Part shown: positions 3,845 to 54,591 of the stretch, in pieces
Numbering within the stretch: position 1 is the stretch's first letter
Layout: every line of letters starts with the position of its first letter
Source: Candidatus Methanophagaceae archaeon
Lineage (GTDB): Archaea; Halobacteriota; Syntropharchaeia; Alkanophagales; Methanospirareceae
Direction of reading: 5' to 3'
Assembly (NCBI GenBank): GCA_003194435.1
Contig: PQXC01000006.1
Span: 3,981 to 67,980 of the forward strand
Length of the DNA stretch: 64,000 nt
Program-made: the position numbers and the translations under genes
Notes under the pieces: model-generated
What the model was told of the DNA's origin: nothing
Databases searched by the model: none
Seen by the model: the letters and a program-made list of their open reading frames with translations, nothing else

Positions 3845-4086
3845 GGGTTCGGAATTTCATATAACTTCGGTATATCCGCATTGCTGATATATCACATATT
3901 GCACATATACATCCCTCTGGATGAAACTCCTATCTCCTCGATTCTCTTTCCTTTCATCCTTTTGCGCCTCCACCATTCTCTTTCTTAAACAAACTATCTA
4001 ATGGACTTTTTCCTTTTAAATAATTTTCTTTTTTAAGCAGGGCGGAGTGAATTTCGGACAACGGTTTGTGGGTATGCTACTGAGTC
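3845..4086. repeat. Direct repeat copy 1 (about 230 bp) of 5026-5312
   Basis: Aligned by eye: ccggtatatccgcatt...catccctctggatgaaactcctatctcctcgatt...cttaaacaaactatctaatggacttttt...aaataattttcttttttaagc.gggc.gagtgaatttcggacaacg, then a degenerate gggtatgctactgagtcc motif. Confidence 0.6.
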
Positions 4087-4986: not shown

Positions 4987-5207
4987 ATCATCTCCTTAGT
5001 TTTAAGCCCAATGTCGCCTAACTCCGGTATATCCGCATTACTGCATATATCACTCCCATTTGGTATTATATCTGCAATGCGTATATACATCCCTCTGGAT
5101 GAAACTCCTATCTCCTCGATTTTCCTTCCTTTCATCCTTTTGCCATTCTTTTTCTTAAACAAACTATCTAATGGACTTTTTATCTCCCCTATATCTTTAT
5201 TACTCAC
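4983..5207 (-). CDS. Small hypothetical protein (74 aa), translationally coupled to 4378..4986
   Basis: ORF MSNKDIGEIKSPLDSLFKKKNGKRMKGRKIEEIGVSSRG... with stop/start overlap ATGA. Its 5' part and leader are duplicated (degenerate) at 3845-4075. Confidence 0.3.
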   Translation of the reverse strand: MSNKDIGEIKSPLDSLFKKKNGKRMKGRKIEEIGVSSRGMYIRIADIIPNGSDICSNADIPELGDIGLKTKEMI

Positions 5208-5312
5208 ATGTGTATATATTTTATTACCTCCTTTTCCTTTAAATAATTTTCTTTTTTAAGCGGGGCAGAGTGAATTTCGGACAACGCTCCGGGCGTATCT
5301 GAAGTTCCCCGA
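5026..5312. repeat. Direct repeat copy 2 (with internal insertions) of 3845-4086
   Basis: Same alignment as copy 1. Ends in the gggcgtatctgaagttcc motif, which is the left arm of structured repeat B. Confidence 0.6.
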
Positions 5313-5375
5313 AGGGGAATTTTGGCAGAGGTGCGAAGCACTGTAGCCAGATACGCTCTGTTATACGCCGTGCCT
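5279..5375 (-). repeat. Structured repeat B (inverted orientation), family AGGCAYGGCGTATAAC...GAGCGTATCTG...CAGATACGCYC...GTTRTC
   Basis: The reverse complement aligns almost base-for-base with 25473-25565. Contains an 11-bp inverted repeat gagcgtatctg / cagatacgc.c and UUCG-type hairpins (ccccttcgggg, gtgcttcgcac). The core gttatacgccgtgcct (5360-5375) abuts the OLD gene stop. Confidence 0.6.
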
Positions 5376-9642: not shown

Positions 9643-11556
9643 TCATCTCTTCTTTTCTTCTTTTACATCATAATCCACATCCACGTAATCGCCGCTTTCG
9701 CTTTCGCTCTCTTTTTTAGTGCCTTCCTCGCCCTTGCCCTTAGCCTGCTCCTTAGTCTGCCCCTGCCCCTGAGCTTGTGCCTGTTCCTGTGCCTTCTTCG
9801 CCGCTTCCTGATACACCACCGCCGAAATCTCGTGTAGCGCCTTCGTCAGTGCATCCATATCCTCCTTTATCTTCGCTATGTCTTTACCCTCTAACGACTT
9901 CTTTAGCTTCTCTCGCGCCTGCTCCACCTTCTCCCGCTGGTCTTTGCTTATCTTGTCACCAAGCTCGTTTATCGTCTTCTCTGAGGTATAAACGAGCGAG
10001 TCTGCCTGATTTCGGAGTTCCACCTCCTCTTTTCGCTTCTTATCCGCCTCACGGTACTTCTCCGCTTCCTTCACCATCCGGTCTATCTCCTCTCTTGAGA
10101 GCTTGGTTGAGGCGGTTATTCTTATAGAAGCGGCTTTGCCCGTGCCCAGGTCCTTCGCCGTTACGTTCAAAATGCCATTTGCATCAATATCAAATGTGAC
10201 TTCAATCTGGGGAACGCCCCTCGGTGCTGGCGGAATGCCATCCAGATGAAACCTCCCAAGCGAGGTGTTATCGGCAGCCATCGGTCTCTCACCCTGCACG
10301 ATGTGTATCTCTACCGATGTCTGATTGTCAGCAGCAGTGGTGAATATCTGCGATTTCTTCGTTGGTATCGTGGTGTTCCGCTCTATTATCGGAGTGGCTA
10401 CGCCACCAAGTGTCTCAACACTGAGTGTGAGCGGAGTAACATCGAGCAGAACTATCTCGTCCTTCACCTGCCCTGCGATTATACCCGCCTGTATCGCCGC
10501 GCCAATTGCCACCGACTGCATTGGGTCCACTCCCCCTTCGCCTTTCTTACCCATTATGCGTTCAAAATACCCGCGCACAATTGGCGACCTTGTGGGTCCA
10601 CCGATGAATATTATCTTGTCTATATCCTCTGGGGTGAGCTTTGCATCTTCTAACGCCTGCTTTATGGGTGCTTCTACTCGCTTCAATATCGGTTCTACCA
10701 GTTCCTCCAATTTAGCCCGCGTGAGCGTGGCTTCCAGATGCTTCGGCTCATTGCCAGAGACGGCAATGAACGGCAGATTTATTGTTGTAGAGACAGAAGA
10801 GGATAACTCTATCTTCGCCTTCTCCGCTTCATCCTTTATCCGCTGCATCGCTGTAAGGTCGTTACGCAAGTCTATCCCTTCTTTCGCTTTAAAACCCTCC
10901 ACCAACCAGTCTATTATTGCAGCATCTATATCCGCACCACCGAGATGTGTATCACCAGAAGTGGATAATACCTCAAATACACCCTCCCCTATCTCCATAA
11001 TCGTGACATCAAAAGTACCACCGCCGAAGTCGAGAACCGCGACCTTATATTCACCCTCCTTGCCGAGTCCATAAGCCATCGCCGCTGCCGTCGGCTCATT
11101 TATTATCCGTTTCACATCAAAGCCCGCAATCTCACCCGCATCCTTCGTCGCCTGCCGCTGGTTATCATTGAAATACGCCGGCACGGTGATCACCGCAGCA
11201 TCTACCTTCTCACCCAAATACGCTTCGGCATCCGTCTTTATCTTCTCCAGTATCATTGCTGATATCTCCTGTGGTGTGAACTCCTTATCTATGGTCTTCA
11301 CATATACCTTCTCTGCAGTTCCCATCTTCCGCTTTACTTCCATTATTGTACCCTCTGGATTGATAACCGCCTGCCGTTTCGCCGCCACTCCAACCAACCG
11401 CTGTCCATCCTTCGTGAATGCTACCACTGACGGAAACATCTTTCCACCGTATGCACTGCCTTCCGCACTGGGTATTATCTTCGGCTCACCACTTTCGTCT
11501 ATATACGCGGCTTCCGAGTTCGTGGTTCCAAGGTCAATACCTATTATTCTCCCCAT
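9643..11556 (-). CDS. dnaK: Molecular chaperone DnaK (Hsp70)
   Basis: [28 protein letters not shown]-type motifs along the full Hsp70 length. Acidic C-terminus. Confidence 0.95.
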
Positions 11557-22525: not shown

Positions 22526-23629
22526 ATGATGAATGAAGAATTGCTCATGATTCCAGGACCGGTGCCGGTACTACCTCGCATTCGTAATGCGATGTCAAAG
22601 CCGATGATATACCACCGGGGAGAGGAATTCAGGGCGATGTATGAGGAGATAGTAGCAACGCTGAAGTGGATATTTCAGACGAGGAACGACCTCTTCGTGC
22701 TCTCAGGCTCAGGCACATGTGCAATGGAAGCGGCGATAGGCAACCTCGTTCGTAAGGATACCCCGGTGGTGAGCATAGCCAATGGCAAATTTGGCGAGCG
22801 GTTAGTTGAGATAGGAAACAGGTATAGCGATAATGTCACCCCGGTTAACTTCGAATGGGGCAGTCCAATCGAACTGGAGGAAGTGAAGGCGGCTATGGAG
22901 GAGAAGCATCCTCAGGTTGTTACAATGGTGCATAACGAGACATCAACAGGTATACTCAATCCAGCAGAGGCTATTGCAAGACTCACACGTAAGTACAATG
23001 CACTGTTCGTGCTGGATTGCATCACCTCAATTGGGGGCTACGAAGTGCCGGTAGACGATTGGGGGGTGGACATTGCCATTGTCGGCTCACAGAAATGCCT
23101 CGGTGCACCACCCGGGCTGTCGGCAATCTCGGTAAGTGAGCGTGCATGGAAGATGATGCTGGGTGATAATGATAATAGTGAGAGTAGGGAGAGACCATAT
23201 TATATGGACCTCATCGCTTACAGAGATAGTTTTGAGAAGGGACAAACACCCTATACACCTGCTTTACCTCTGTTCTTTGCATTGCGAGAGGCACTGGAGG
23301 TGATAAAGGAGGAAGGGATGGCAAAGCGAGTAGAACGTCACAGGCGACTCGCAGATACTCTCCGCTCTGCTGTCACAAATCTGGGATTGAGTTTATTTCC
23401 GAGACTGAACGATGTGAGTGCATACTCCAACACGGTGACCGCAATAAAGGTACCTGAGTGGCTCGATGATGCGCACTTGAGGGGTGGTATGCGAGAGAGG
23501 GGGGTGATGGTCGCAGGTGGTCAGGGTAAGCTGAAGGGCAAGATATTTCGGATAGCCACAATGGGGAATATAACAGAGGGTGAAGTCTCGAGAACCATAC
23601 AGGCACTGGAAAGTGCACTCAGGGGGTGA
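22526..23629 (+). CDS. PLP-dependent aminotransferase class V (serine-pyruvate/alanine-glyoxylate/phosphoserine aminotransferase family)
   Basis: 367 aa; [12 protein letters not shown]...; PLP-lysine region [11 protein letters not shown]. Confidence 0.8.
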
Positions 23630-24099
23630 AGGAGAGAGGAATGAAGAAGGAGTTGAAGGTAGTTCCTATAAAAAATGGCACCGTTATTGACCACATCTCT
23701 GCCGGTCAGGCACTGAATGTGCTTCACATATTGGGTATCAATGGTAAGACTGATGCGGTTGTGAGTGTGGTGATGAACGTACGGAGTGGAAAGATGGGGA
23801 GGAAGGATATAGTGAAGGTAGAGGACAGGGAACTAAAGCCGGAGGAGGTGGATAAAATCGCTTTGATTGCGCCAAATGCCACTATAAATATAATACGCGA
23901 CTCGGAAGTGATAGAGAAGCATAAGGTATATTTACCTGAGTTTATAGAGGGTATAATAAGATGTTCGAATCCCAATTGCATATCTAATGCGGAGCGTGAG
24001 CCGGTTGTACCGAGATTTGTGACTTTAAGCACGAATCCTCCGAGGTTCCGGTGTTTCTACTGTGAGCGGATAATGGAGGATGTATCAGGGTATATATAG
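23626..24099 (+). CDS. pyrI: Aspartate carbamoyltransferase regulatory subunit
   Basis: [16 protein letters not shown]-domain and C-terminal Zn domain CSNPNCIS...FRCFYCE. No pyrB adjacent. Confidence 0.85.
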
Positions 24100-24117
24100 T
24101 ATATAAAAGAGGATATA

Positions 24118-24687
24118 ATGAGTAGGAATGCGCGAGTGAAGCGGGAGACGAAGGAGACGAGTGTGGAGGTGGAACTTGAACTTGATGGTAACGGTGCCAC
24201 CAGGATAGACACCGGAATTAAATTCTTTGACCATATCCTCACTGCTTTCGCCACTCACGGGTTCTTTGACCTCGTTGTGGATGCGGAAGGTGACCTGAGC
24301 CATCATATCATTGAGGACACTGCTATCACGCTCGGTAAAGCGTTCAAAGATGCAATTGCAGCCGATAGGACGAAGACCGTGCGGTATGGTCTCGCTGCGG
24401 TGCCCATGGATGAATCCATTGCGAGATGTGCAGTAGATATAGGCAGTATAGGTGGAGAGGGTAGAAGTTATACGGTCCTGGAACTGGGCTTGGCAAGGGA
24501 GCGGGTTGAGGACGTCAGCACCGAGGACATACCCCATTTCCTAAATTCTTTCGCATCTCATGCAAATCTCACACTCCACATATATGCACGGGGCGGTAAC
24601 GAGCACCACAAGATAGAAGCGATATTTAAGGCGCTTGGAATTGCACTGGATAAGGCAACGAGGGTAGAAGAGAGGAGGGTAAAGTAA
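24118..24687 (+). CDS. hisB: Imidazoleglycerol-phosphate dehydratase
   Basis: RETKETSVEVELELDG, FFDHILTAFATHG, HHIIED motifs. Confidence 0.9.
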   Translation: MSRNARVKRETKETSVEVELELDGNGATRIDTGIKFFDHILTAFATHGFFDLVVDAEGDLSHHIIEDTAITLGKAFKDAIAADRTKTVRYGLAAVPMDESIARCAVDIGSIGGEGRSYTVLELGLARERVEDVSTEDIPHFLNSFASHANLTLHIYARGGNEHHKIEAIFKALGIALDKATRVEERRVK

Positions 24688-24769
24688 TACAGTAACGCGA
24701 ACACGTATACTATACCCATTTCTTGAATAAAACCAATTTACGGGGTAGTAAACATAGAGCTCAAGGGGC

Positions 24770-24839
24770 GATCCGCTAATCTTGATGACCCAAACCCTTA
24801 CGGGCTTCGCATACCCGCAAAGCGTTATACGCCATGCCT
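24770..24839 (-). repeat. Diverged, inverted copy (D) of the structured repeat family; core gcgttatacgccatgcct at 24822-24839
   Basis: Reverse complement reads ttaggcatggcgtataacgctttgcgggtatgcgaagcccgtaaggg. Shares the 16-18-bp core with 7199-7214, 5360-5375 and 25473-25488. Confidence 0.5.
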
Positions 24840-24848
24840 AAGAGGTAG

Positions 24849-25278
24849 ATGAAGATGAGAAGAAAGATAAGAGTATACTTGGTCACTTCGGTAATTTCAG
24901 CGCTATTTGATGAAAGGAATCCAGAGAGGAAATCACTCACAGAAGCTTTTTTCGCGGAAATAGATAATTTTGAGACTTTCATCCCGCACTCCCGACATGG
25001 AACTCCAAAGCAAATTGAAGGATGCAGTATCGCGATTTTCAGTGCTCTCTTTAACCGATGACGTTGAATGGGTAGCGCGCGAGTATATCCCAGTTCCAGA
25101 GAGTTACTCTGAGGATGCCTACCATATTGCCATCGCTGTTATAAACGAGGTAGACTATCTTTTGAGTTGGAACTTCAAGCACATAGTGAGGAGGAAAACG
25201 AGAGACATAGTGAGGATGGTAAATACTTTAAATAACCTGAGACAAATAGAAATTATGGCACCTGCAGAATTGCTATAG
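24849..25278 (+). pseudogene. PIN-domain (VapC-like) toxin gene split by a +1 frameshift; first catalytic Asp replaced (RVYLVTSVISAL)
   Basis: ORF 24849..25061 carries the N-terminal PIN strand (vyLDTsvi-like). ORF 24970..25278 in the +1 frame carries the C-terminal PIN half (DAYHIAIAVINEVDYLLSWNFKHI). Confidence 0.55.
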
Positions 25279-25287
25279 GAGGCAGAT

Positions 25288-25614
25288 ATGAGCAAGATTA
25301 AGGAAGAAGATATTGAGAACATAAGAAAAGCCATAGAAAAGGAGTTTCCAGAAGACCCTGCTTTACAACAGGTTCACATCGCGAGGAAAATCATTGCTAA
25401 AGAAGCGCAACTTGAAGGATTAAGTTTCTTTGAATACGTCAAATTGTTGGGGAAGCGAGTAGTTAACAATGAAGGCACGGCGTATAACAGAGCGTATCTG
25501 GCTTCGGTTATAGCCTTCGCCAAAATTCCCACGCGGGGAACTTCAGATACGCTCGGAACGTTATCTGCAATTGCTTGGCTTATAGTGAGGTGTGAAAATG
25601 GGACGTCTTATTAA
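25288..25614 (+). CDS. Hypothetical protein (108-aa ORF whose C-terminal 45 codons run through structured repeat A)
   Basis: ORF only. The 3' third is encoded by the repeat, so the native stop is probably lost. Confidence 0.3.
   Translation: MSKIKEEDIENIRKAIEKEFPEDPALQQVHIARKIIAKEAQLEGLSFFEYVKLLGKRVVNNEGTAYNRAYLASVIAFAKIPTRGTSDTLGTLSAIAWLIVRCENGTSY
25473..25565 (+). repeat. Structured repeat A (reference copy): AGGCACGGCGTATAAC-aga-GCGTATCTG-[two hairpins]-CAGATACGC-tcggaac-GTTATC
   Basis: Seen directly. 9-11-bp perfect inverted repeat, internal GGCTTCGG...AGCC and TTCCCacgcGGGGAA hairpins, ATAAC/GTTAT outer inverted boxes. Confidence 0.6.
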
Positions 25615-26950
25615 AATACACGATATAGACGAGTTTTCAGAAGTCAAAACTATCCCAGATGCAACTATAAATAACGAAATACTGACTAACATCAGAAATT
25701 TAGATGAAAAAAAGGAACTGGAGCGTTTTCTTCGAGAAATTTTATATGATCCAAATGAAACTCCTCATGGTCCTACGGAAATAGCAGATATATTGACAAA
25801 TGTACATGTTAGAGGAGATAAGCGATTAACTGCTTTTGTTTTGAAAGGAAAAAGCTTCCAAAGAGTTTCAAGTAGACATGTAACTCATCAATTCGCTAAA
25901 CTCCGGCAAATCTCAGAACTCGGTTTGATGGTTTTTGGAGCAGTCGGGAATATCCAAGATGATGCTCAGAGAGATTTTGTGCAAATAGCTATTGATGCAG
26001 GATGTGACTATCTTATCATGGATGCTCAGGACTTGGCACGCTTGTTTATTGCCTATGAAAAAATCTGTCCAAAAGATGGGACACCTTATGATGATACAGG
26101 CACATGTAAAAAAGGGCATGTGCGAGATAAGGGTTTGCCTTTAGAAATGGAAGTAAGAGAAAAAATACGATACACCATTGTAAATCAAAAAGACGTAAGC
26201 CACGCTGGAGCCAAACGTTACTCTGCTACTATTCTTTTAGACAGGCATTATCCTAAGGATGTAATTAGAACAATTATTCAAGAAGCAACAGAGAAGCTGA
26301 AATATAGCAGTTATTACCGTAGTGAACGACTGAAAGCACGCTGGGGGAAAAATCCTGCTCATGTAGTGTGGCTATTCATAGCTTATGACTTAGAGGATAT
26401 TCAAAATGCAAATTGGGTCTGTCGTACTTGTTGGATAGATCCATCGTTAACAAAAGATATGCGTCCTGTTGATTTAAATGGTAATGAAAAACTCGGAGAT
26501 ATAGAAATCCTTTGGAACGATGACTATAAACCATATAAGAACTTCTTTGAAACTTTCTCTGGCACGAAGGAGGAATTTTTGGGAGCCATTCAGCCCATAT
26601 TGAATGAAATGATAGAGTTTGCTAAACGAGCAATTGAGTATTTTGAAGAATACCGCCGAGGGAACATTCCTGAAGAGGAGTTGATCTTGAGGATGCAAAA
26701 GATGGAACCAAGGGTCACGGAATTTTACTTGCAATCAGGAAATATCCCTATGCCTCCCGAAGACTGTAAGGACTATGACCAAGCTTGCCAGAATATTTTT
26801 GCTACTATCCACGATATGTTTCTCTATTTTTCTAAAAGAGGGTTAGAAACATGGCCTAAACGAAATAGAGATTGGTTAATGCAGGACACTATAAAGCGAT
26901 TTTATAATGATATGAATAGGATTAGATTTGAAGAGACTAAGATACATTGA
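25592..26950 (+). CDS. Hypothetical 452-aa protein, island cargo (possible nuclease-like N-domain)
   Basis: Long intact ORF with no recognisable motif beyond a possible alpha/beta N-domain. Bounded by repeat A upstream and half-repeat C starting at its stop codon. Confidence 0.55.
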   Translation: MKMGRLIKIHDIDEFSEVKTIPDATINNEILTNIRNLDEKKELERFLREILYDPNETPHGPTEIADILTNVHVRGDKRLTAFVLKGKSFQRVSSRHVTHQFAKLRQISELGLMVFGAVGNIQDDAQRDFVQIAIDAGCDYLIMDAQDLARLFIAYEKICPKDGTPYDDTGTCKKGHVRDKGLPLEMEVREKIRYTIVNQKDVSHAGAKRYSATILLDRHYPKDVIRTIIQEATEKLKYSSYYRSERLKARWGKNPAHVVWLFIAYDLEDIQNANWVCRTCWIDPSLTKDMRPVDLNGNEKLGDIEILWNDDYKPYKNFFETFSGTKEEFLGAIQPILNEMIEFAKRAIEYFEEYRRGNIPEEELILRMQKMEPRVTEFYLQSGNIPMPPEDCKDYDQACQNIFATIHDMFLYFSKRGLETWPKRNRDWLMQDTIKRFYNDMNRIRFEETKIH

Positions 26951-26951
26951 T

Positions 26952-26976
26952 ACTTCAGATACGCTCGAAACGCTAA
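26952..26976 (+). repeat. Half copy (right arm, cttcagatacgctcgaaacg) of the structured repeat family
   Basis: Matches the right arm of repeat A in the same orientation. Begins immediately after the TGA of the 452-aa gene. Confidence 0.5.
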
Positions 26977-26977
26977 G

Positions 26978-27739
26978 TGGCAAAAAGAGTTTACAAGAGG
27001 GTTACAGGAGCTCCTAAAATCCTATGTAGATAGGGAAGCGACAAAAAATTATCAAAGGATTATCCCAGATACTGGAAAATTTTATGGAGTTCCACTTCCT
27101 GTTTTGAGAATAATATCTGCCGAAATAGGAAAGTTTATCCAGAAAGAACCAACAAAAGCTACGACATTGTTAGAAACTATCTGGGATGAAGGTTCCTTTG
27201 AATCAAGACAGATAGCAGGGAAATGCTTAGAGAAGTTTGGTCCAAAGAATCCAAAAATTTGTTTAGATTTTGTCTCTTCAGTATTACCTGATCTTGATAA
27301 TTGGGCTGTTTGTGATAATCTTGCCATGTGTGGAGTAGAACCAATAGTTTATTCCAATCCGGAACTCGTTTTACCTCTCTCTGAAAGATGGATTAAGAGC
27401 GAGAACAAATGGATCAGGCGGTTTGGAGTGGTAAGTTTACGAGGATACAAGAGAATCCAAATAACAGATAAAGCTTTCGAGATTCTTGATCTGGTCATGG
27501 AAGACAAAGACAAAGATATAAAAAAGGCGGTATCGTGGGTTTTGAGAGAAATAACAAAGAAGAATCCAGATGGGGTGGCAGAGTTTTTAACACGATGGGC
27601 AGAGGCAAAGCCAGATAAGAATGCGAGATGGATCATAAAGGATGGGATGAAAAAGCTGCCAAAAGAAATGCAGACTGAAATCTTAACTTGGGGTGCACCC
27701 CTAAAAGTAGACAGTAAGTTAAGAAATAAGAAAAAATGA
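26978..27739 (+). pseudogene. AlkD-like DNA alkylation repair (HEAT-repeat DNA glycosylase) gene, start codon lost at 5' end and 3' end reading into the IS3 inverted repeat
   Basis: Open frame from 26951 with no ATG/GTG until TTG 27104, yet the upstream codons encode the conserved AlkD N-terminal region (LQELLKSYVDREATKNYQRIIPDTGKFYGVPLPVLRIISAEIGK). Same frame as the 452-aa ORF, separated by one TGA. The last 17 codons (WGAPLKVDSKLRNKKK) are IS terminal-repeat sequence. Confidence 0.55.
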
Positions 27740-28071
27740 AAAAGGGGTGCAAGATGAAAAGAAGGAGGCAATATACACGGGATTTCAAAATTGGTGTAAT
27801 TAGAGAGGTCGAGAGTGGAAAAACGCTTGCCCAGGTGTCACGTGAGAACGAGATACATCCATCTCTCGTGGTGAAATGGAAGAAGGAATACTTTAGGGAC
27901 CCGGAAAATGCCTTTCGTGGCAACGGGAAGGCATATAAAGAGCAAGCAAGGATGGCAGAGCTTGAAAGGCTGGTTGGGCAGTTATACGCAGAAAACGAGT
28001 TTTTAAAAAAAGCATTGACCAGATTGGAAGTCAAAATCAAGGAAGAGGAGGTAAAAGAAGCACGGGGGTGA
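27736..28071 (+). CDS. IS3-family transposase OrfA (HTH)
   Basis: RRQYTRDFKIGVIREVESGKTLAQVSRENEIHPSLVVKWKKEY, leucine-zipper-like C-terminus. Confidence 0.85.
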   Translation: MKKGCKMKRRRQYTRDFKIGVIREVESGKTLAQVSRENEIHPSLVVKWKKEYFRDPENAFRGNGKAYKEQARMAELERLVGQLYAENEFLKKALTRLEVKIKEEEVKEARG

Positions 28072-29003
28072 AATACATGCTCATAAAAGAGAGTCTCGAA
28101 TCTGGAAGCCAAATATCAGTAAATCGAGCCACGCAATTATTGGGCGTAAGCAGATGCGGGTTCTATAAGTGGCTCGGGCAATCGAAGACCGGACAGGTGA
28201 ACGCCATACCGGACATGGACGTTAGAAACGAAATACAGAAGATCGCCGTGGAGTTCCCCGCATACGGATACAGACGGATAACCGCCGAACTCCGGAATCG
28301 TGGTTATTCGGTGAACCATAAACGTGTACTCAGGCTCATGAGAGAAGACAATCTCCTTTGCGTTCGTAAGGATTTTAAGCCAAAAACCACCGATTCCAGG
28401 CACGATCTCAGGGTCTATCCCAATCTTGTGAAGGGGTTGAAGATAACCCGATTGAATCAGGTATGGGCTTCCGATATCACTTATATCCGTCTATCGGGCG
28501 AATTCGTCTACCTGGCGGTAATCCTGGACCTCTTCAGCAGGAAATGCATCGGATGGAATCTGGATAGAAGCCTTCACACAGAACTGGCGTTAAAAGCTCT
28601 GGCTATGGCAATAGAAACACGCTGGAATGAGAACCTGCGGGGACTGATTCACCACTCAGATCAGGGAGTTCAATATGCCTCGGAAGAATATATCGGATGT
28701 CTCAAAGCGCATGGAATCCTGATCAGCATGTCAGCGCGTGGCAACCCCTACGATAATGCATTCGTAGAGAGCTTCATCCGGACATTGAAGTATGAAGAGG
28801 TCTATCTCAATGAATATGAGACCTTCTCCGACGCCTTAGATAATATCGCTCATTTCATAGAGGACGTATACAACAAAAAGAGGCTGCATTCTGCCATAGG
28901 GTACCGCTCTCCCATAGACTTCGAGAAGGAAATGGAGATGGAGATGGAGATGGAAATGGAAAAGGGGGTGAAAGCATCGAAAGTTTTAAATACTGTTTCT
29001 TAA
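28068..29003 (+). CDS. IS3-family transposase OrfB (rve integrase core, DDE)
   Basis: WASDITYIR...HHSDQGVQYAS...NAFVESF (D, D, E triad region). In the -1 frame relative to orfA. Confidence 0.85.
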   Translation: MKYMLIKESLESGSQISVNRATQLLGVSRCGFYKWLGQSKTGQVNAIPDMDVRNEIQKIAVEFPAYGYRRITAELRNRGYSVNHKRVLRLMREDNLLCVRKDFKPKTTDSRHDLRVYPNLVKGLKITRLNQVWASDITYIRLSGEFVYLAVILDLFSRKCIGWNLDRSLHTELALKALAMAIETRWNENLRGLIHHSDQGVQYASEEYIGCLKAHGILISMSARGNPYDNAFVESFIRTLKYEEVYLNEYETFSDALDNIAHFIEDVYNKKRLHSAIGYRSPIDFEKEMEMEMEMEMEKGVKASKVLNTVS

Positions 29004-29052
29004 CTAGTTGTATACTAACAGGGGTGCACCCCAACTCTTTTAGATTGAGAAT

Positions 29053-30183
29053 ATGACAAAATTCATCGAAATCGAAGCGAAGAGTATTTTACAGAAGTAT
29101 AAGTTTAGAGATGATTGGTTCTGGAATCGTTACGGGGTTAACCCTTATCGTGGCTGCCAGTTCGCATGCAACTATTGCGATGCGATAACAGAGAAATATC
29201 TTGTGCATGAATCCTACAAGGATTTCTCAAGGATAATTTATGTAAAGAAGAACGCTCCCGAAATCTTAGGAAAAGAGGTTAAAAAGTTGAAGCCAGATGT
29301 TGTTGCTATGTCCGGCGTTACTGACCCCTATCAGCCCGCTGAGAAGAAATATGAGTTAACAAGGAAAATGTTAGAGATTTTAGCAGAGCATAGGTTTCCG
29401 GTTCATATTATCACGAAGAGCGATTTGGTCTTAAGAGACGTTGATTTACTGCGAGAGATAGCAAAACAGACCTGGTGTACGGTTTCCTTAACAATTATAA
29501 CCTTCAATAAGGAGTTGTTGCCCTACCTGGAACCGTTTGCACCTTCGCCGGAAAGGAGGTTAGATGCAGTTGATAAGTTAAATAAGGAAGGAATACCGGC
29601 AGGTGTTGACTTTACACCCATTGTACCATATCTTTTGGATGGTCCAGAAAATATTGAAGAAGTGATCAAAAGGGCATCTGAATGTGCACAATATATTCTA
29701 ATCGGTGCAGCAATGACTCTGAGAAGTAATCAACGCATAAGATTCTTTGAATTATTAAAAACAAATTTTCCTGAACTCGTGGAAAAATATAAGAATTTAT
29801 ATGGAGAGAAAGAGAATCCTCCACAAGATTATATTGTGAGGCTAAATGGTCTTGCATTTGAGTTTTGCAAGGAATACGGGATAAAGAATTATATTGAGCC
29901 GCCGAGCTTTGAAAGACCTCTCAAAGAGAATTTTGATGTGGCAAATCATTTATTGTTGATAGCGTTTTTCAAAGAATTCAAATCAGCAAATCCTTATTCC
30001 GCGTGGGCTTATCATAGGGCATCTCAAAATATAGAAAACTTAGATGAGAGCATAAAGGAGATTTATAAAAAAGGAGAATTAAAAAAGATTCAAGGTGTAG
30101 GGAAGAGTATCGTTAAGATTATTGAAGATTATTTAACAAATGGGAGCAGTGAAAGATTGGATAAGGAGATTAAGACATGGTAA
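29053..30183 (+). CDS. Radical SAM DNA-repair photolyase family protein (spore-photoproduct-lyase-like, COG1533) with C-terminal helix-hairpin-helix
   Basis: CQFACNYC (CxxxCxxC); overall SplB-like length; C-terminal KIQGVGKSIVKIIEDY HhH motif. Confidence 0.7.
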   Translation: MTKFIEIEAKSILQKYKFRDDWFWNRYGVNPYRGCQFACNYCDAITEKYLVHESYKDFSRIIYVKKNAPEILGKEVKKLKPDVVAMSGVTDPYQPAEKKYELTRKMLEILAEHRFPVHIITKSDLVLRDVDLLREIAKQTWCTVSLTIITFNKELLPYLEPFAPSPERRLDAVDKLNKEGIPAGVDFTPIVPYLLDGPENIEEVIKRASECAQYILIGAAMTLRSNQRIRFFELLKTNFPELVEKYKNLYGEKENPPQDYIVRLNGLAFEFCKEYGIKNYIEPPSFERPLKENFDVANHLLLIAFFKEFKSANPYSAWAYHRASQNIENLDESIKEIYKKGELKKIQGVGKSIVKIIEDYLTNGSSERLDKEIKTW

Positions 30184-31490: not shown

Positions 31491-32720
31491 ATGATAGAGG
31501 ATAGCAGACTGTATGGGCATCGTATGTCCGAATGGCAGCAGGTGCGGCAATTAGCGCAGTTCCACGTCTATCTCGATCCAGAGACGGGGATGGCTTATAC
31601 ACATCCTGAGTTCCTGCCACCGATCATTCGAAACAGGCTATTACCAAAGCTCGGGTTTGAATCACATAGCCAGAGAGCGTTCTTCATCATCACAGATAGC
31701 CACCAGCTTGTGGAGTACAAGGGGCTTGTCTATCCCTATTCCAATGACAATGATATAGAGATAGTGCCGGCAAGTGGACAGCCCTGGGGCATGCTCTTGA
31801 AGGAGCATGGTGAACGTGAAGCAATGGCATTGAATGCAATTGCAAGGCGAATCGGTGGTGTCTATGGTGAGTATCACGATGCGGGAGTGGCAATACAGAA
31901 CCGAGAAAGAGAAGGTGGTGAGATAATACATTACGGCGTTCTCAGGCGCTGGAGTGATGATTACGATTATGCTTATGCTTACATACCTTTTATTAGGCTT
32001 GACCTCTTTGATGCTGTGAGGCGACTTGCCACGCTGGAGGGCACGTCACATATCGAACTGCTGAAGAGTGCAATGGCGCGATTGGGCTTGATATTGAGGA
32101 CTGCACATGAAATTGGGATTTATCACTGCTTCACGCATCCGGGTAATATAGATGCACATGGCAACCTTGTGGATTTCGAGCATGCAATCTGCAGTGCAGA
32201 GATTCCGGTGCTGAAAAGACTATGCCTGAATGGAAGTGAGTTACTGGATGATGCACATCTGCGATATCGAGACATTGACCTCTTCTTTGCTGGCGCTCGT
32301 GAGATTCTGCACAGATGTCAGACATGCTTTAAACTCTCTCGTGATGAGTTAATGAAGAAGATAAGGTTTCTGCGTGAGAATATATCCATCACAGTGGGTA
32401 TACCTGTTTTTGAGGTTCTTGCACATCTGAATATCGGGTTTTACGAGGATACACTGAAGAGACTCCCGTTCTGCTACCAAGAAGACGTAATAGGAGCGTT
32501 TGTTGATAGCTATTGTGAATCTGGGTCAGGGTCGGAAGTGAAGCGTGGTATCTTCTCAGAACTGCTCAGACATGGCAAATGGACACCGAAGGCGAGTGGA
32601 TACATCATCAATGCCGGGAATCCACTACCAATGCAGCAGATACCAAATGAGCTCATATTAAAGCTCTGGAATATGGCGCCACTCAAGAAGAAAGAGAAAG
32701 TGTTCAGCCCCCTCCACTAA
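31491..32720 (+). CDS. Protein-kinase-like fold protein (APH/RIO-like), possibly a pseudokinase
   Basis: IYHCFTHPGNIDAHGNLVDFEHA resembles the catalytic-loop/DFG region hGDlHpgNi...iDFg, but with Phe in place of the catalytic Asp. 409 aa, otherwise no recognisable motifs. Confidence 0.45.
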   Translation: MIEDSRLYGHRMSEWQQVRQLAQFHVYLDPETGMAYTHPEFLPPIIRNRLLPKLGFESHSQRAFFIITDSHQLVEYKGLVYPYSNDNDIEIVPASGQPWGMLLKEHGEREAMALNAIARRIGGVYGEYHDAGVAIQNREREGGEIIHYGVLRRWSDDYDYAYAYIPFIRLDLFDAVRRLATLEGTSHIELLKSAMARLGLILRTAHEIGIYHCFTHPGNIDAHGNLVDFEHAICSAEIPVLKRLCLNGSELLDDAHLRYRDIDLFFAGAREILHRCQTCFKLSRDELMKKIRFLRENISITVGIPVFEVLAHLNIGFYEDTLKRLPFCYQEDVIGAFVDSYCESGSGSEVKRGIFSELLRHGKWTPKASGYIINAGNPLPMQQIPNELILKLWNMAPLKKKEKVFSPLH

Positions 32721-32952: not shown

Positions 32953-33010
32953 CGAAATGGCGTATAACAGCGGATAAAAGGCTTCGATGCTTCACACCTT
33001 CGCCCAAGTG
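32953..33010 (+). repeat. Copy E of the structured repeat family (ggcgtataacagcgg...ggcttcgatgcttcacaccttcgcc), right half diverged
   Basis: Shares the GGCGTATAACAG core and the ggcttcg..ccttcgcc central part with repeats A and B. Lies at the boundary between the accessory island and cofH. Confidence 0.45.
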
Positions 33011-33164
33011 GTGTTCAAATATCGTCTTCTATATTTTTGCTGTGTATCTGTAACGACTCTTTCATAATGATATTTTTACAAGGAGGGTATGTAAAGGCTA
33101 ATGTTTTGGTAGACAGTTGTTCGAAGATTTTTGTGAGGGAATGTTAATAAAATAATCCTAAATC

Positions 33165-49659: not shown

Positions 49660-52600
49660 TTACCATGCTACATGCCCCCAGTTTGCTCCTATTATAACGG
49701 CGTCGAGGATGTTTATCACGCAATCGTTGTTCAGGTCTGCTTTGTCTTTCTGCAGGTCATCCCACAGATAACCCTCACAGTTGTCACAAGGGTTCGTTGT
49801 AGAACAATGTTCACCCCAGTGCTTTCCTACGTACACTGCATCCAGGATATTCACCCTGCCGTCTCCGTTCGCATCCCCTGCTATGTAAACGGTAACATCA
49901 AAGGAAGTTGAGTTGCTCATTTCCGGGCATCCGTCATCTGTCACCGTTAATACCGCACTGAATAGCACGTAATCTCCATTTGGGTTACCGAATGGTTCCC
50001 ACTGCCATGACTTATATTTGTGCTCTTTGCAAGCGCATCCGTTTAGGTTACCACCTTCACTGGTTCCATACTGCCCGTCACCGAACGCGAACCGGATATA
50101 CGAGATGTTGCCACCTTTATTACCGAAATCCGGGTCCCATGAGCACGAGCATATAGTCGTGTTGCACGGATATTTCTTTGCCACGTTGTTGTACCGGTGC
50201 TTTGATACTGCAATTGCAATTGGTGGTGTGTTGTGGGAAATTGTGACGGTGCCATTAAAGATGTTTATTTGGTCGTACGATTCGTCTGTGTCAGGATTGA
50301 CAATGATCACATCACTGAGGTTGAGGTTAGCGAGTGATTCGCGTTCCCCAATTGCGGTGAACTGAATAGTTGCCACGGTGCCCTTTTCATTTACACCGCT
50401 CTCCCCTATTCTCGTCTCTGCGTATGAAATCTCGCCCGTGGCATGGTCTATGCTATTGGTGACCACGATTGTCTCACCGGAAAGACCGAGGAAAGGTCCT
50501 TTTGTCTGCGTCTCTGCTCTTACTACACTGGTGTTATAATGGAGATAATACTGGACACCATAGACCGAGTTCCCGTGAGGGTCAACCGTTATGTTCACGT
50601 CAAACTGGTCTTGTGGTTGAACAGTAACATTATTTGGTTCAACACTTATTTCAACGAGTACTCCTCTCACGGTTATAGTGATATTCTCGAAGTCAGTTAG
50701 TTCGCCATCGGTGACCTCGAAATGCACATCGTGATAGATACCTGCCTGTCCGAAAGTGGGCGTCCATGCGAATCTTCTCGTGCTCGGGTCAAAAGTTGCC
50801 CCAGGGGGCAGGTTGGATGCGGAGTATATCAGTGCATCGCCATCAGGGTCGGTAGCATGGATAGTAAATGCGAGCAAAGAATTCTCGTTAGCGAGCTTGT
50901 CTCCTATTTCTTCGAGCACCGGAGCACGGTTGACGTTATTCACTGTAATCCGCACGGTCTCATTATCAGTTCCACCTTTGCCATCGTTAACGCCAAAATC
51001 CACGTGATAAACACCGGCATCGTCATATGAAGGCATCCAGTGCCCGATACCAGTTGAAGGATTGAAATCAGCGAACAAATCCGTGCGGTTGCAATAATAG
51101 GTGAGCGTGTCACCATCCAGGTCGGTTGCATTAAGAGCAATCATGAGAGTTTCATTCTCGTTTATTCCTGTATCGCCAATGGGAGCGAGTTCAGGCGGTC
51201 TGTTCACATCGTTCACCGTTATCTTAATAGTTTTGTTATCAATCCCGCCTTTAGCGTCGCTAACGCCGAACTCAATGTAGTAAATGCCTGCGTCGTCATA
51301 ATCGGTAATCCAGTGCCCGATACCTGTTGAAGGCTTGAAATCGGCGAATAAATCCGTGCGATTGCATGAATATGTAAGCGTATCACGGTCGAGGTCGGTT
51401 GCATTCACATCTATCGTTAGCGTTTCACATTCATTTATTTCTCGGTCTCCTACGGGTTCGAGTTCCGGTGGTCTATTTTCATTTTTCACGGTTATCTTCA
51501 CCGTCTCGTTATCAATCCCGCCTTTGCCGTCTGAAACACCGAAATCAACGCAGTAAGTGCCTGCATCGTCGTAGTCGGTAGTCCAGTGTCCGATGCCCGT
51601 TTCCACGTTGAAATCAGTGAACAGGTCCGTGCGGTTGCATGAATAAGTGAGTGAATCACCGTCAGGGTCGGTTGCATTAACGTCAATCGTTAGCATTTCC
51701 GTTTCATTCAGTTCCACATCTGCAACAGGTTCAAGTTCAGGTGCCCGGTTCACGTTATTTACCACAATCGTGATGTCTTCGTAATCGGTTAATTCACCGT
51801 CGCTGACCTCGAAGTGGACATCGTGATATGTCTCCGACTGTTCAAAAGAAGGAGTCCACGAGAATGTCCTCGTGTCCGGGTTGAAGGTTGCACCATCAGG
51901 TAGATTCGATGCTGAATATGTCAGTGTGTCGCCATCAGGGTCGGTGGCGTTTATCGTGAATTCGAGCAGTTCGCTCTCGTTCACCGCTTTGTCGCCTATC
52001 TGCTCAAGAACAGGCGGTCTGTTCGTGCCACCTACCACGATTGTAATGTTCTCCCAGTCGCACAATTCGCCGTCGCTGACCTCGAAGTGCACGTCATGAT
52101 ATATCCCCTCCTGCTCAAAAGAAGGAGTCCACGAGAATGTTCTCGTGTTGGGGTCGAAACTCGCTCCCTCTGGGAGATTCGATGCTGAATATGTCAGTGT
52201 GTCGCCATCAGGGTCAGTGGCGTTTATCATGAATTCGAGCAGTTCGCTTTCATTTACCATCTTATCGCCTATTGGTTCAAGAACAGGTGGTCGGTTCTTG
52301 TTATGAACGATTATTTTTACTGTCTCGTTATCAATTCCGCCTTTACCATCAGAAACACCGAAATCAACGTAATAGGTACCTGCATCATCATAATCAGCAG
52401 TCCAGTGTCCAATGCCGATAGCAGTATCGAAATCAATGAACAGGTCTGTACGGTTGCATGAATAGGTGAGCGTATCATGGTCGGGGTCGGTAGCATCAAC
52501 ATCAATCATAAGCGTTTCGCTTTCGTTTAGTTCTCTGTCGCCAACGGGTTTAAGCACTGGCGGTCTGTTCACATCGTTTACCGTTATCTTAATGGTCTCG

Positions 52601-54591
52601 TTATCAATCCCACCTTTACCATCAGAGACGCCAAAGTCAACATAGTATGTGCCTGCGTCGTTATAATCAGGGGTCCAGTGCCCGATACCAGTTGAAGGGT
52701 TAAAATCAGTGAATAAATCTGTTCGATTGCAGGAATAAACAAGCACATCATTGTCGGGGTCGGTTGCATTCACATCTACCGTGAGCGTTTCATTCTCATC
52801 AATTGTTCTATCACCTACTGATTCAAGCACTGGCGGTCTGTTCACATCTTTCACCATTATCTTAATGGTCTCGTTATCAGTCCCACCTTTACCATCAGAG
52901 ACGCCAAAGTCAACATAGTATGTGCCTGCATCGTTATAATCAGGGGTCCAGTGCCCGATGCCCGTTAAGGAGTCAAAATCAGTGAATAAATCGGTTCGAT
53001 TGCAGGAATAAACAAGCACATCGTTGTCGGGGTCGGTTGCATTCACATCCACCGTGAGTGTTTCATTCTCATCAATTGTTCTATCACCTATTGATTCAAG
53101 CACCGGCGGTCTGTTCACATCATTCACCGTTATCTTCACGGTCTCATTGTCGCTGAATTCACCATCAGAAACGCCGAAATCCACATGATAAACACCAGCA
53201 TCGTCATAGGAGGGTGTCCAGCTCCAGAGAGTGGCAGTGCCGTTGATGGGTGTAAAAGCGCCAAATGAGGCGTTACTGCTGAATGTTAGCACGTCTCCAT
53301 CGGGGTCGGATGCGGTAATCGTTATATTAAGGGCAAAGCCCTCGTCAACGGTTCTGGGACCGATGGGATTGAGCACTGGCGGCATATTAACATCAAAAGC
53401 ATATAGCTTACCGCCACAGGTTCCGATATAGAGAGTGCCATCGGATGCTATTGCGGGCGAAGAATAACAGATTATCCCGGTGTTATATCTCCACAGAAGC
53501 GAGCCATCAGGGTTTATTGCATAAACATACCCATCTTGTGAGCCTACATAGATGATACCGGAGGCATCAATTGCAGGTGATGAGCTTATGCCGCCGTCAG
53601 TGGTATAAGTCCATTTAAGCGAGCCATCGGGATTTATTGCATATAATTTCCTGTCGCACGAGCCGACGTAAATAGTGCCGTCAGAACCAATAGCAGGTGA
53701 CGATACAATCCAGCAGCCTGTTGGATATGTCCACTTAAGTGTGCCATCGGGATTTATTGCATATAATTTCCTGTCATACGAGCCGACGTAAATAGTGCCG
53801 TCAGAGCCGATGGCAGGCGAGGACTTTGTCATCCCGACGGTATATTTCCATTTGAGCGAGCCGTCAGGATTTATTGCATATAGTTTTCTATCAAACGAAC
53901 CTATATAGATGGTGCCGTCAGAGCCAACAGCTGGTGAGGATTGGATTGAACATCCTGTCTGATAACTCCATTTAAGACTGCCATCAGGGTTTATTGCGTA
54001 CAGTTTTCCATTGTTATTGCCTATATAAATAGTGCCATCAGGGGCTATAGCAGGCGATGTGAGGACGAAGCCCCTGGATTTTTTCCACTTAGAGTCATAG
54101 AACTCCCATTTCTCCGTGCCGTTCGGATACAGAGCATATAATCTGCGATTCCAGCATCCTACGTATATCGTGCCATCCGAAGCTACCGCTGGTGTGGAAT
54201 CAATGTAATCAACCAGGCCATGATAAAAATAAAGAGGGGGCGACCAGTGCCATTTCTCCGTGCCATCCGGGTTAATAGCATACAATCTCGAGCGAGTATA
54301 CCAGTGCCAGCCGCTTGTGCCTATGTATATTGTCTCGTCTGGAGCTATTGTTGCAGAACTAAATATCCCTCTACCTCCTCCGGTATAAAATGTCCATTTC
54401 ACCGTTGCCGTGTTTGGTCCGTAATAGGGACTTAACCCTGTGTGGCTCAGGTCATGATGGAACATGGGCCATGGCGAAGAGGCGAGTTGAGCAGTAGCTG
54501 CTGGAGTTACTGACCACAAGATTACACAGATTGCCAGGAGATTACCAAAAGAACTTTTTCTCGCGAAATCTCGTGGTTTTTTATCTCTCAT
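49660..54591 (-). CDS. Giant secreted protein (1643 aa): 8-bladed PQQ-like beta-propeller + about 11 tandem cadherin/Ig-like repeats + cohesin domain + PKD-like + C-terminal double dockerin
   Basis: Propeller repeats DGTIYIGS..KLYAINPDGSLKW. 92-aa repeats NRPPVLE.IGD....E.L...VNATDPDGD.L.YS...DLF.DF. Cohesin FDVNITVDPHGNSVYGVQYYLHYNTSVV. Dockerin GDANGDGRVNILDAVYVGKHWG and ADLNNDCVINILDAVIIGANWGHVAW. Confidence 0.85.
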   Translation of the reverse strand: MRDKKPRDFARKSSFGNLLAICVILWSVTPAATAQLASSPWPMFHHDLSHTGLSPYYGPNTATVKWTFYTGGGRGIFSSATIAPDETIYIGTSGWHWYTRSRLYAINPDGTEKWHWSPPLYFYHGLVDYIDSTPAVASDGTIYVGCWNRRLYALYPNGTEKWEFYDSKWKKSRGFVLTSPAIAPDGTIYIGNNNGKLYAINPDGSLKWSYQTGCSIQSSPAVGSDGTIYIGSFDRKLYAINPDGSLKWKYTVGMTKSSPAIGSDGTIYVGSYDRKLYAINPDGTLKWTYPTGCWIVSSPAIGSDGTIYVGSCDRKLYAINPDGSLKWTYTTDGGISSSPAIDASGIIYVGSQDGYVYAINPDGSLLWRYNTGIICYSSPAIASDGTLYIGTCGGKLYAFDVNMPPVLNPIGPRTVDEGFALNITITASDPDGDVLTFSSNASFGAFTPINGTATLWSWTPSYDDAGVYHVDFGVSDGEFSDNETVKITVNDVNRPPVLESIGDRTIDENETLTVDVNATDPDNDVLVYSCNRTDLFTDFDSLTGIGHWTPDYNDAGTYYVDFGVSDGKGGTDNETIKIMVKDVNRPPVLESVGDRTIDENETLTVDVNATDPDNDVLVYSCNRTDLFTDFNPSTGIGHWTPDYNDAGTYYVDFGVSDGKGGIDNETIKITVNDVNRPPVLKPVGDRELNESETLMIDVDATDPDHDTLTYSCNRTDLFIDFDTAIGIGHWTADYDDAGTYYVDFGVSDGKGGIDNETVKIIVHNKNRPPVLEPIGDKMVNESELLEFMINATDPDGDTLTYSASNLPEGASFDPNTRTFSWTPSFEQEGIYHDVHFEVSDGELCDWENITIVVGGTNRPPVLEQIGDKAVNESELLEFTINATDPDGDTLTYSASNLPDGATFNPDTRTFSWTPSFEQSETYHDVHFEVSDGELTDYEDITIVVNNVNRAPELEPVADVELNETEMLTIDVNATDPDGDSLTYSCNRTDLFTDFNVETGIGHWTTDYDDAGTYCVDFGVSDGKGGIDNETVKITVKNENRPPELEPVGDREINECETLTIDVNATDLDRDTLTYSCNRTDLFADFKPSTGIGHWITDYDDAGIYYIEFGVSDAKGGIDNKTIKITVNDVNRPPELAPIGDTGINENETLMIALNATDLDGDTLTYYCNRTDLFADFNPSTGIGHWMPSYDDAGVYHVDFGVNDGKGGTDNETVRITVNNVNRAPVLEEIGDKLANENSLLAFTIHATDPDGDALIYSASNLPPGATFDPSTRRFAWTPTFGQAGIYHDVHFEVTDGELTDFENITITVRGVLVEISVEPNNVTVQPQDQFDVNITVDPHGNSVYGVQYYLHYNTSVVRAETQTKGPFLGLSGETIVVTNSIDHATGEISYAETRIGESGVNEKGTVATIQFTAIGERESLANLNLSDVIIVNPDTDESYDQINIFNGTVTISHNTPPIAIAVSKHRYNNVAKKYPCNTTICSCSWDPDFGNKGGNISYIRFAFGDGQYGTSEGGNLNGCACKEHKYKSWQWEPFGNPNGDYVLFSAVLTVTDDGCPEMSNSTSFDVTVYIAGDANGDGRVNILDAVYVGKHWGEHCSTTNPCDNCEGYLWDDLQKDKADLNNDCVINILDAVIIGANWGHVAW
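50330..53400 (-). repeat. Intragenic tandem repeat array, period about 276 bp (92 codons), about 11 copies of two alternating subtypes
   Basis: Consecutive protein repeats, some identical over more than 45 residues (NRPPVLES.GDRTIDENETLTVDVNATDPDNDVLVYSCNRTDLFTDF occurs twice). Confidence 0.7.

Follow-up and report, generated by a model that had tools for sequence, protein, structure and literature searches.

An integron-type cassette in an ANME-1 chromosome carries a gene of an undescribed modular protein family with links to defence

Introduction

How did an intact gene come to lie between two copies of a short repeat in the chromosome of an anaerobic methanotrophic archaeon, and what does it encode? 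The gene is found in a 64,000-nucleotide stretch (hereafter the window; contig PQXC01000006.1, positions 3,981 to 67,980) of a Candidatus Methanophagaceae (ANME-1) metagenome-assembled genome (MAG). Its open reading frame (ORF), on the + strand at 25592..26950, encodes 452 amino acids (aa) when read from a GTG start at 25592. Database copies begin two codons later, at the ATG at 25598, giving a gene at 25598..26950 (stop codon TGA at 26948-26950) whose 450-aa product is identical to PXF52778.1, annotated as "hypothetical protein". Exact matches of the thermosome and aIF5B genes of the window fall on the same 88.5-kb contig, so that the host is an ANME-1 archaeon.

We propose that an integron-type cassette carries the gene as its cargo and that the gene most likely encodes a stand-alone immune protein of the abortive-infection type, a reading to which we assign a probability of roughly 0.6. 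The cassette anatomy, the truncation of its attC site, purifying selection on the gene, the modularity of the protein and its context in defence islands and cassette arrays were observed directly. The modular family to which the cargo belongs is undescribed, and its links to defence are strong but circumstantial.

The repeat is an integron attC site

A 24-nt direct repeat brackets the ORF (25540-25563 and 26952-26975, 92% identical), where none was expected from 100 shuffles. Upstream, the copy forms the 3' part of a structured element of about 95 nt (25477-25571), which scores 99 bits with the covariance model R1; the downstream copy is the 3' third of the element alone and does not fold. A reading of the same DNA made without database searches (the sequence-only reading) had described the ORF as delimited by a full and a half copy of a repeat, which agrees with the full element at 25477-25571 and a remnant at 26952-26979.

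This structured element is the recombination site of integron cassettes, attC. The intact attC at 25477..25571 (+), which forms the 3' end of the upstream PIN cassette, consists of R'' (GTATAAC), L'' (GAGCGTATCTG), two variable hairpins, L' (CAGATACGCTC), the spacer GGAAC and R' (GTTATCT). An alignment of 70 copies has the form xxxxTAAC-A-GAGCGTATCTG-(hairpin 1)-CAAAT-(hairpin 2)-A-CTTCAGATACGCTC-GGAAC-GTTAxxxx, in which TAAC and GTTA are near-invariant and the outer boxes are of the RYYYAAC/GTTRRRY type (e.g., GCCTAAC/GTTAGGC). Hairpin 2 shows 27-29 compensatory double changes per pair in these copies. The bottom strand folds at -16.1 (z -3.1) versus -13.9 (z -2.0) for the top strand, while the L'' and L' arms are conserved in sequence; attC sites are usually conserved in structure only.

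The eight bases after GTT at the cassette start were compared with the reverse complement of R''. Cassette starts match the R'' of their own attC at 5.45 of 8 positions (n=58). The corresponding value for R'' and R' of one site is 3.78 of 8 (n=102), and random pairs reach 3.86; the difference is significant (Mann-Whitney p = 5e-12). This complementarity within the same cassette places the crossover at G|TT, as in integron attC sites. The copies form arrays with a spacing of 0.3-2 kb in many loci (e.g., L027, with six sites, L008, L017, L091, L011 and L213), always on the same strand and immediately 3' of ORFs. An exact-pattern scan of 185,579 species genomes found sites with identical L'' and L' arms on at least 117 contigs (L011-L127) from more than 20 bacterial and archaeal phyla, the archaeal carriers being ANME-1, Methanosarcinales, Methanoperedenaceae, Methanothrix, Nitrosotalea, Hadarchaeia, Thermoplasmata and Methanocellales. 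These contigs come mostly from anoxic sediment and seep MAGs.

The repeat could alternatively be a miniature inverted-repeat transposable element, the end of an insertion sequence (IS) or the gene of a structured small RNA, with the flanking of the ORF coincidental. Its conservation is indeed unusual for attC, the same arms recurring in at least 117 loci, and the 64 kb hold two intact copies only; an Rfam scan of the window returned two tRNAs and left the repeat unmatched, as did a literature search on its sequence. Such elements would nonetheless fit poorly with copies that share one strand, lie immediately 3' of ORFs in arrays, possess AAC...GTT cores of the RYYYAAC/GTTRRRY type and are complementary to cassette ends across G|TT, with a tyrosine recombinase and an attI-like site associated. 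Terminal inverted repeats with target-site duplications are absent, and MAGs with attC sites called by IntegronFinder overlap our loci (JAFNKG01 is our locus L081). We therefore hold this alternative to be very improbable.

The 24-nt repeat was also considered as a target-site duplication or att site of an inserted element. This was rejected because two related loci (L010 and L128) diverge right after the half repeat and because L008, an unrelated contig with a homologue 82% identical, carries full structured copies on either side of the gene, one of them with a different yet self-complementary arm.

Cassette boundaries and loss of mobility

The cassette of interest measures 1412 bp (25561..26972, +) and comprises leader, ORF and truncated attC. 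It begins at the crossover point G25560|T25561 with a 37-nt 5' leader, TTATCTGCAATTGCTTGGCTTATAGTGAGGTGTGAAA, which includes a GAGGTG Shine-Dalgarno sequence and is kept in homologous cassettes of other genomes. At its 3' end L'-spacer-R' alone is left of the attC (26952..26979, +; ACTTCAGATACGCTCGAAACGCTAAGTG), with the core changed from GTT to GCT. Two homologous loci, L129 and L130 (98% and 95% identical), retain an intact 98-nt attC after the stop codon; the window, L128, L170 and L205 have in common a deletion of about 90 nt that took R'', L'' and both hairpins, together with the GTT to GCT change. With this deletion, and a remnant that does not fold, the cassette at 25561-26972 is immobilised. 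We envisage that site-specific recombination at the G|TT of an attC site brought the cassette in and that it was later frozen, when its own attC lost the 5' two-thirds and the core changed to GCT. Past the remnant, the window and L170 enter a 5'-truncated AlkD-like gene; past their attC or remnant, L128, L205, L129 and L130 enter a different cassette.

The upstream cassette (24829..25560, +), holding a frameshifted PIN-domain gene (24849-25278) and a small ORF, obeys the same end rule, its start TTATACGCCAT being complementary to the R'' of its own attC, ACGGCGTATAAC. A 108-aa ORF upstream of our gene was examined as a candidate antitoxin and rejected: it is part of the PIN cassette and extends across the attC, and other loci do not have it.

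The arrangement recurs elsewhere. A metagenome scan yielded 32 loci with homologues at least 71% identical (L128-L160, L170, L190, L200, L203 and L205), 19 of which have an R1-class attC next to the gene and on its strand; the other loci are for the most part short contigs that offer little flanking sequence. Where the gene is flanked by attC, about 25 nt separate the end of the upstream site from the ATG, and about 20 nt lie between the stop codon and the downstream site. No attC of the R1 class was found beside homologues of 67% identity or less. The "repeat-flanked cargo" of the sequence-only reading is thus an integron cassette, with the attC as its repeat, in a decayed ANME-1 cluster of attC sites lacking an integron integrase (CALIN), a kind of element already described.

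A decayed array and its recombinase

Across the window, R1 finds two intact attC sites, one degenerate site and two half sites, i.e. a decayed array. The second intact attC (5274..5371, -) lies directly after an OLD/GajA/AriA-like gene (7188-5377, -) coding for an ATPase-Toprim nuclease with AAA_15 and OLD-like Toprim domains; consequently, that gene too looks like a cassette. A weak attC-like remnant directly after hisB (24730..24828, +; 11.6 bits, E 1.7) is taken as the beginning of the decayed array. The degenerate attC (32957..33054, +; 33 bits, E 1e-5) marks the far end of an accessory island at 24.7-33.1 kb, in which GC content is 0.38-0.40 versus 0.47-0.49 on both flanks. Directly ahead of it lies a 409-aa ORF without a Pfam match (31491-32720, +), which may be further cassette cargo.

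Clustering of the ORFs that flank arrays brought out a tyrosine recombinase as the joint-largest recurrent family. It is oriented like the cassettes (L026 175-1341; also L012, L027, L088, L117 and L120) and reaches 230 bits, above threshold, with NF040815 ("site-specific tyrosine recombinase/integron integrase"). An N-terminal extension of about 100 aa and an IntI-like C-terminal SPLD tail are further features of this protein. Downstream of the recombinase stop codon, a conserved region of about 110-170 nt that ends in GATATACCGRAG|TTA in 15 loci is a putative attI-like site. The window contains the recombinase gene solely as two 3' remnants, both with YTHVSNKDIGEIKSPLDSLF and both followed by an attI-like site ending GATATACCGRAG|TT. 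The first (5022..5215, -) includes IYTHVSNKDIGEIKSPLDSLF, and its attI-like site ends GCGGATATACCGGAG|TT; the second lies at ~3865-4010 (-). Small membrane-protein cassettes follow these remnants, coding for a 202-aa XhlA/holin-like protein (4986-4378) and a 176-aa protein (3800-3270). Isolated recombinase 3' ends with attI were seen in 8 loci.

Integrons and CALINs are known from Archaea, including ANME-1, with attI immediately downstream of intI, cassettes rich in toxin-antitoxin (TA) and restriction genes and attC sites 95-100% identical to bacterial ones (Ghaly 2022, PMC9668308). One ANME-1 MAG that appears in the tables of that study with IntegronFinder attC calls, JAFNKG01, is our locus L081. 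Moreover, the pyrI BLAST matches of one of the verified ANME-1 integron contigs of Ghaly 2022 (PMC9668308) include, at about 80% identity, PXF52773.1, which is the pyrI of the window's contig (pyrI and hisB, 23626-24687). This match suggests a similar integron location, and the position next to pyrI and hisB seems to be conserved in ANME-1.

Our loci share with the archaeal integrons and CALINs of Ghaly 2022 the R''-L''-L'-R' organisation with AAC/GTT cores and a predicted fold of the single strand, arrays in one orientation whose cassettes are short, mostly contain a single ORF and often encode TA or restriction functions, and an attI or attI-like site immediately downstream of the recombinase gene. 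They differ in three respects: the attC is conserved in sequence, not in structure alone, over more than 20 phyla; the recombinase of the arrays lacks the extra domain specific to IntI; and the window holds a decayed array with one truncated attC and remnants of the recombinase only. For integron biology this poses a choice: either these attC sites are recombined by a recombinase that lacks the IntI extra domain, or an IntI acts on the arrays in trans.

A modular protein family under selection

The sequence-only reading had called the protein an orphan, which does not hold: a word-indexed search returned 354 homologues at E<1e-3, mostly of about 451 aa and 57-86% identical, and an exhaustive profile search returned 909 matches, 532 of them at E<1e-10. 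Named members, all annotated as hypothetical, come from MAGs of Thermoplasmatales, Methanosarcinales, Methanothrix, Thermotogae and Planctomycetes. The protein itself has no match in Pfam, NCBIfam, PADLOC, PHROGs or PDB sequences. Two other statements of that reading were borne out, that the ORF is intact amid broken genes (the PIN-domain gene is frameshifted, the AlkD-like gene truncated at both ends) and that it is under selection: the dN/dS of the 452-codon ORF against nine cassette homologues is 0.10-0.15, which indicates purifying selection.

The protein might instead be a nuclease of housekeeping or DNA repair whose gene lies near the repeats by chance. The gene adjoins an AlkD-like gene and a radical-SAM/helix-hairpin-helix (HhH) gene in the window, and in Methanothrix a family member adjoins a radical-SAM/HhH and DUF4130 pair. 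This explanation is largely refuted, and we give it next to no weight: the spread over the above lineages is patchy, the neighbourhood differs in each genome, 19 loci are flanked by attC, the gene lies in a low-GC island and the neighbouring AlkD-like gene is itself a truncated pseudogene.

The exhaustive profile search further revealed two modules, residues 1-178 and about 186-450, that recombine independently. The second sits behind DUF4365, TIR_2, Mrr_cat, caspase or Toprim-like heads in sister proteins of about 410-520 aa; the Toprim-like head is related to retron RT-Toprim proteins, and PADLOC models match the sisters through their TIR, restriction endonuclease (REase), caspase or Toprim heads only. 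The first is found elsewhere ahead of ResIII/DEAD helicases, behind a KaiC-like ATPase and behind a 1348-aa HEAT-repeat protein. Helicases with this head (P0240, P0228, P0356, P0360, P0361, P0363, P0364, P0380 and P0387) represent a second uncharacterised architecture, and match the PADLOC model mREase_IV (type IV methyl-directed restriction) at 174 bits.

Predicted properties of the two modules

The AlphaFold2 model of the full protein has a pLDDT of 88.7, and that of the N-terminal domain alone (aa 1-178; 25598..26131, +) a pLDDT of 95.1 and a pTM of 0.90. The latter shows a REase-like alpha/beta fold that ends in a Cys/His zinc-ribbon-like knuckle pair (C157..C170..H174). Foldseek matches this model best to EcoT38I, MspJI, the Rpb5 N-domain, the Avs4 nuclease, ERCC1/XPF/MUS81 and FokI, along with phage "restriction endonuclease" and Mrr proteins. 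Residues E61, D64, K83, Q98, R148, C157 and C170 are invariant across architectures; D64 opens the strand 65-71 and K83 closes the strand 74-83 of a predicted hairpin, which resembles PD-(D/E)xK sites. By structure prediction, then, the domain would belong to the REase-fold class, and a nuclease activity is what this fold suggests.

The C-terminal constant domain (aa ~186-450; 26153..26947, +) is made up of an alpha/beta subdomain (192-306) and a helical bundle (310-449), with the conserved motifs DxSHxxAKRYS and D..NWxC.

Resemblance to MspJI and EcoT38I raises the possibility that the protein is a solitary modification-dependent restriction enzyme of type IV-like action, in which the C-domain would read a feature of DNA, a modified base or a structure, and the N-domain would cut nearby without abortive infection. 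The mREase_IV match of the helicases bearing the same N-domain goes in the same direction, and such an enzyme needs no methyltransferase partner, none of which was found near the homologues. The same C-domain is, however, joined to TIR, caspase and Toprim heads, which do not act on a bound DNA site, and it is unlike known DNA-reader domains; we regard this explanation as rather unlikely. The likeness to these type IIM/IV enzymes lies in their being the best structural matches of the N-domain; they differ from our protein in that the E-values are marginal, sequence similarity is absent, the nuclease occupies the N-terminus in our protein and the domain joined to it is unrelated.

Defence context of homologues and sisters

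The sequence-only reading had proposed a survey of the genomic context of homologues for association with defence islands, and this survey found defence islands and cassette arrays with restriction-modification (RM), OLD, TIR, HNH and VapBC genes. On L008 and L009 the neighbours are an MmeI-type RM system, VapBC, ThsB-TIR, HNH and a large helicase; attC sites separate ThsB-TIR, HNH and the helicase. The Mrr-headed sister P0273 is itself an attC-flanked cassette in the array of L213, placed between a PLD-SNF2 gene and an OLD-family nuclease cassette, with sacsin-like genes also adjacent. The TIR-headed sister of Bacillus sp. FSL W8-0116 lies among transposases, a FokI-like RM system, Vsr and KAP, and that of a Thermoplasmata MAG adjoins another TIR protein and a MORC-like ATPase. 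In the loci surveyed around homologues, no partner gene is conserved with the family and the neighbourhood differs in every genome.

Based on this architecture and context, we infer an antiviral phenotype and a trigger. The C-terminal ~265 aa would be a constant sensor or regulator module, a role suggested by its constancy behind exchangeable heads, and would hold the N-terminal REase-fold nuclease with its zinc ribbon in check until infection is sensed; upon detection the nuclease effector would be released or activated. This head-swap logic resembles that of Avs, of the effectors of cyclic-oligonucleotide-based antiphage signalling systems (CBASS) and of the partner proteins of short prokaryotic Argonautes (pAgo). 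If it is correct, the head is predicted to be the killer and the tail the sensor.

Fused enzymes of this kind could also serve as a toxin or addiction module that stabilises the cassette array, with the C-domain as a fused antitoxin. TA cassettes are frequent in the arrays, as the PIN cassette immediately upstream of the gene and VapBC on L008 illustrate; TA systems make up 10.5% of annotated archaeal cassettes (Ghaly 2022, PMC9668308). Enzymatic heads such as TIR and nucleases are moreover toxic once unleashed. There is, however, no separate antitoxin, the small ORF upstream being in another cassette and not conserved with the gene, and many homologues and sisters lie outside arrays, in defence islands. 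We consider addiction unlikely; a fused toxin-antitoxin is, besides, practically indistinguishable from a sensor-effector immune protein, as exemplified by CapRel.

Several results weigh against an immune nuclease carried in a genuine integron. The Foldseek statistics of the N-domain are weak (E 7e-4 to 1e-2, TMq 0.35-0.43) and its profile matched nothing among PDB sequences. Position 81, two before K83, is V or I and not D, E or Q, so that there is no canonical PD-(D/E)xK triad; the invariant E61 and Q98, or D121, likewise invariant, could substitute for the missing acid. Comparison with the DUF4365 and Mrr heads of the sisters by hhalign gave no similarity, hence the N-domain is not simply a divergent member of either. 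The "alpha/beta nuclease-like" N-terminus of the sequence-only reading is therefore retained as to fold, all of the best matches being REase-like, and qualified by the weak scores and the absence of the (D/E)xK acid. The C-domain profile found coiled-coil noise at most among PDB sequences, and Pfam scans of 19 C-domains returned chance matches alone. Since the C-domain is without detectable relatives of known function, the name "sensor" is an argument from architecture. PADLOC-DB v2 held no family at E<=0.1 for the protein, and several homologues are surrounded by housekeeping genes, defence genes being rare or missing nearby. As for the integron, the recombinase of L026 scores 216 on TIGR02249, under the cutoff of 265 and in two stretches; it aligns end-to-end with XerA (4a8e) and to VchIntIA (2a3v) in two pieces, skipping IntI4 residues 174-239, i.e. 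the IntI-specific domain around patch III. Without this domain, the arrays fall somewhat short of integrons in the strict sense.

We nevertheless favour the immune cassette. The earlier suggestion of a candidate novel defence or toxin protein gains from the context and from the modular effector heads and loses from the homologues in housekeeping surroundings. The profile and fold searches proposed with it yielded a REase-like fold for the N-domain and no profile match to known families.

A broader, tentative proposal follows the distribution of the family. ANME-1, Methanosarcinales, Thermoplasmatota and many bacterial phyla from anoxic sediments share near-identical defence cassettes and attC sites, and this makes the cross-domain integron transfer proposed by Ghaly concrete for one gene. 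It is possible, if doubtful as a whole, that the C-domain defines an unnamed, widespread family of single-gene immune sensors with at least six effector heads (REase-like, TIR, DUF4365, Mrr, caspase and Toprim), spread between Archaea and Bacteria as integron cassettes, and that the arrays are served by a XerA-like recombinase without the IntI-specific domain, which is considered necessary for attC recombination, and so form a distinct integron lineage with sequence-conserved attC sites in more than 20 phyla. A sensor domain of a new kind and such a recombinase would be the main gains.

Relation to known defence systems

Close counterparts in architecture are the partner proteins of short pAgo, i.e. 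TIR-APAZ of SPARTA, DUF4365/DREN-APAZ of SPARDA and Mrr-APAZ. These have the same interchangeable TIR, DUF4365 and Mrr heads on a constant C-terminal module of about 260 aa, with a total length of about 410-450 aa, and the PADLOC "Aga_REase-" and "Aga_TIR-" models match the sister heads. In our literature search, this trio of effectors was associated with short pAgo only, and no other named system was found. The differences lie behind the head: the PADLOC matches end with it (profile positions ~4-160 of ~430), and no test identified the C-domain as APAZ, whether PADLOC, a profile comparison with the SPARTA and SPARDA chains in PDB, the best 50 Foldseek matches of the full-length model, among which no APAZ chain appears, or a search for an adjacent Argonaute, no Argonaute or Piwi gene being present in 12 loci of homologues and sisters.

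Avs4 likewise combines an N-terminal REase-fold effector and a sensor in one polypeptide, and its nuclease domain (8dgf_B) is among the best fold matches; our protein has no STAND NTPase, measures 450 versus about 1500 aa and has an unrelated sensor domain.

With regard to the carrier, the preprint on phage-defence integron cassettes (BRiCs; bioRxiv 10.1101/2024.07.02.601719) describes compact defence genes as single integron cassettes, with defence shown experimentally. Single-cassette defence genes are common to both, our arrays containing OLD nucleases, MmeI-type RM, ThsB-TIR, HNH and VapBC; the BRiCs belong to bacterial mobile or sedentary integrons, and the present family is unmatched in PADLOC. 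If our reading is right, it adds a compact modular defence family of about 450 aa that Pfam, NCBIfam, PADLOC and PDB do not cover. The host of one TIR-headed sister, Bacillus sp. FSL W8-0116 (3.37-Mb contig), may be culturable.

Other features of the window

Fused to the attC remnant is the AlkD-like DNA_alkylation gene (26980..27739, +), which is without its first ~20 codons and whose 3' end is interrupted by an IS3-family element (27688..29034, +; 39-nt inverted repeats, HTH_Tnp_1 and rve ORFs). The 52-nt left end of this IS recurs, 100% identical, at 3133-3082 (-), where its neighbours are another fragment of AlkD (3229-3146) and part of an IS110-family transposase (2668-2925, -). Less than 2 kb downstream of our gene lies the radical-SAM/HhH gene (29053-30183, +), and the Methanothrix loci L005-L007 have such a neighbour (10020-11207) within the same limit, there with DUF4130; this may reflect coincidence or a common insertion hotspot. 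Farther away, a gene cluster for large proteins, secreted or at the surface, whose N-termini are cohesin-like occupies 40035-64000 (-), e.g., at 50675-53221, and a 1643-aa ORF (49660-54591) contains highly regular 273-nt tandem repeats.

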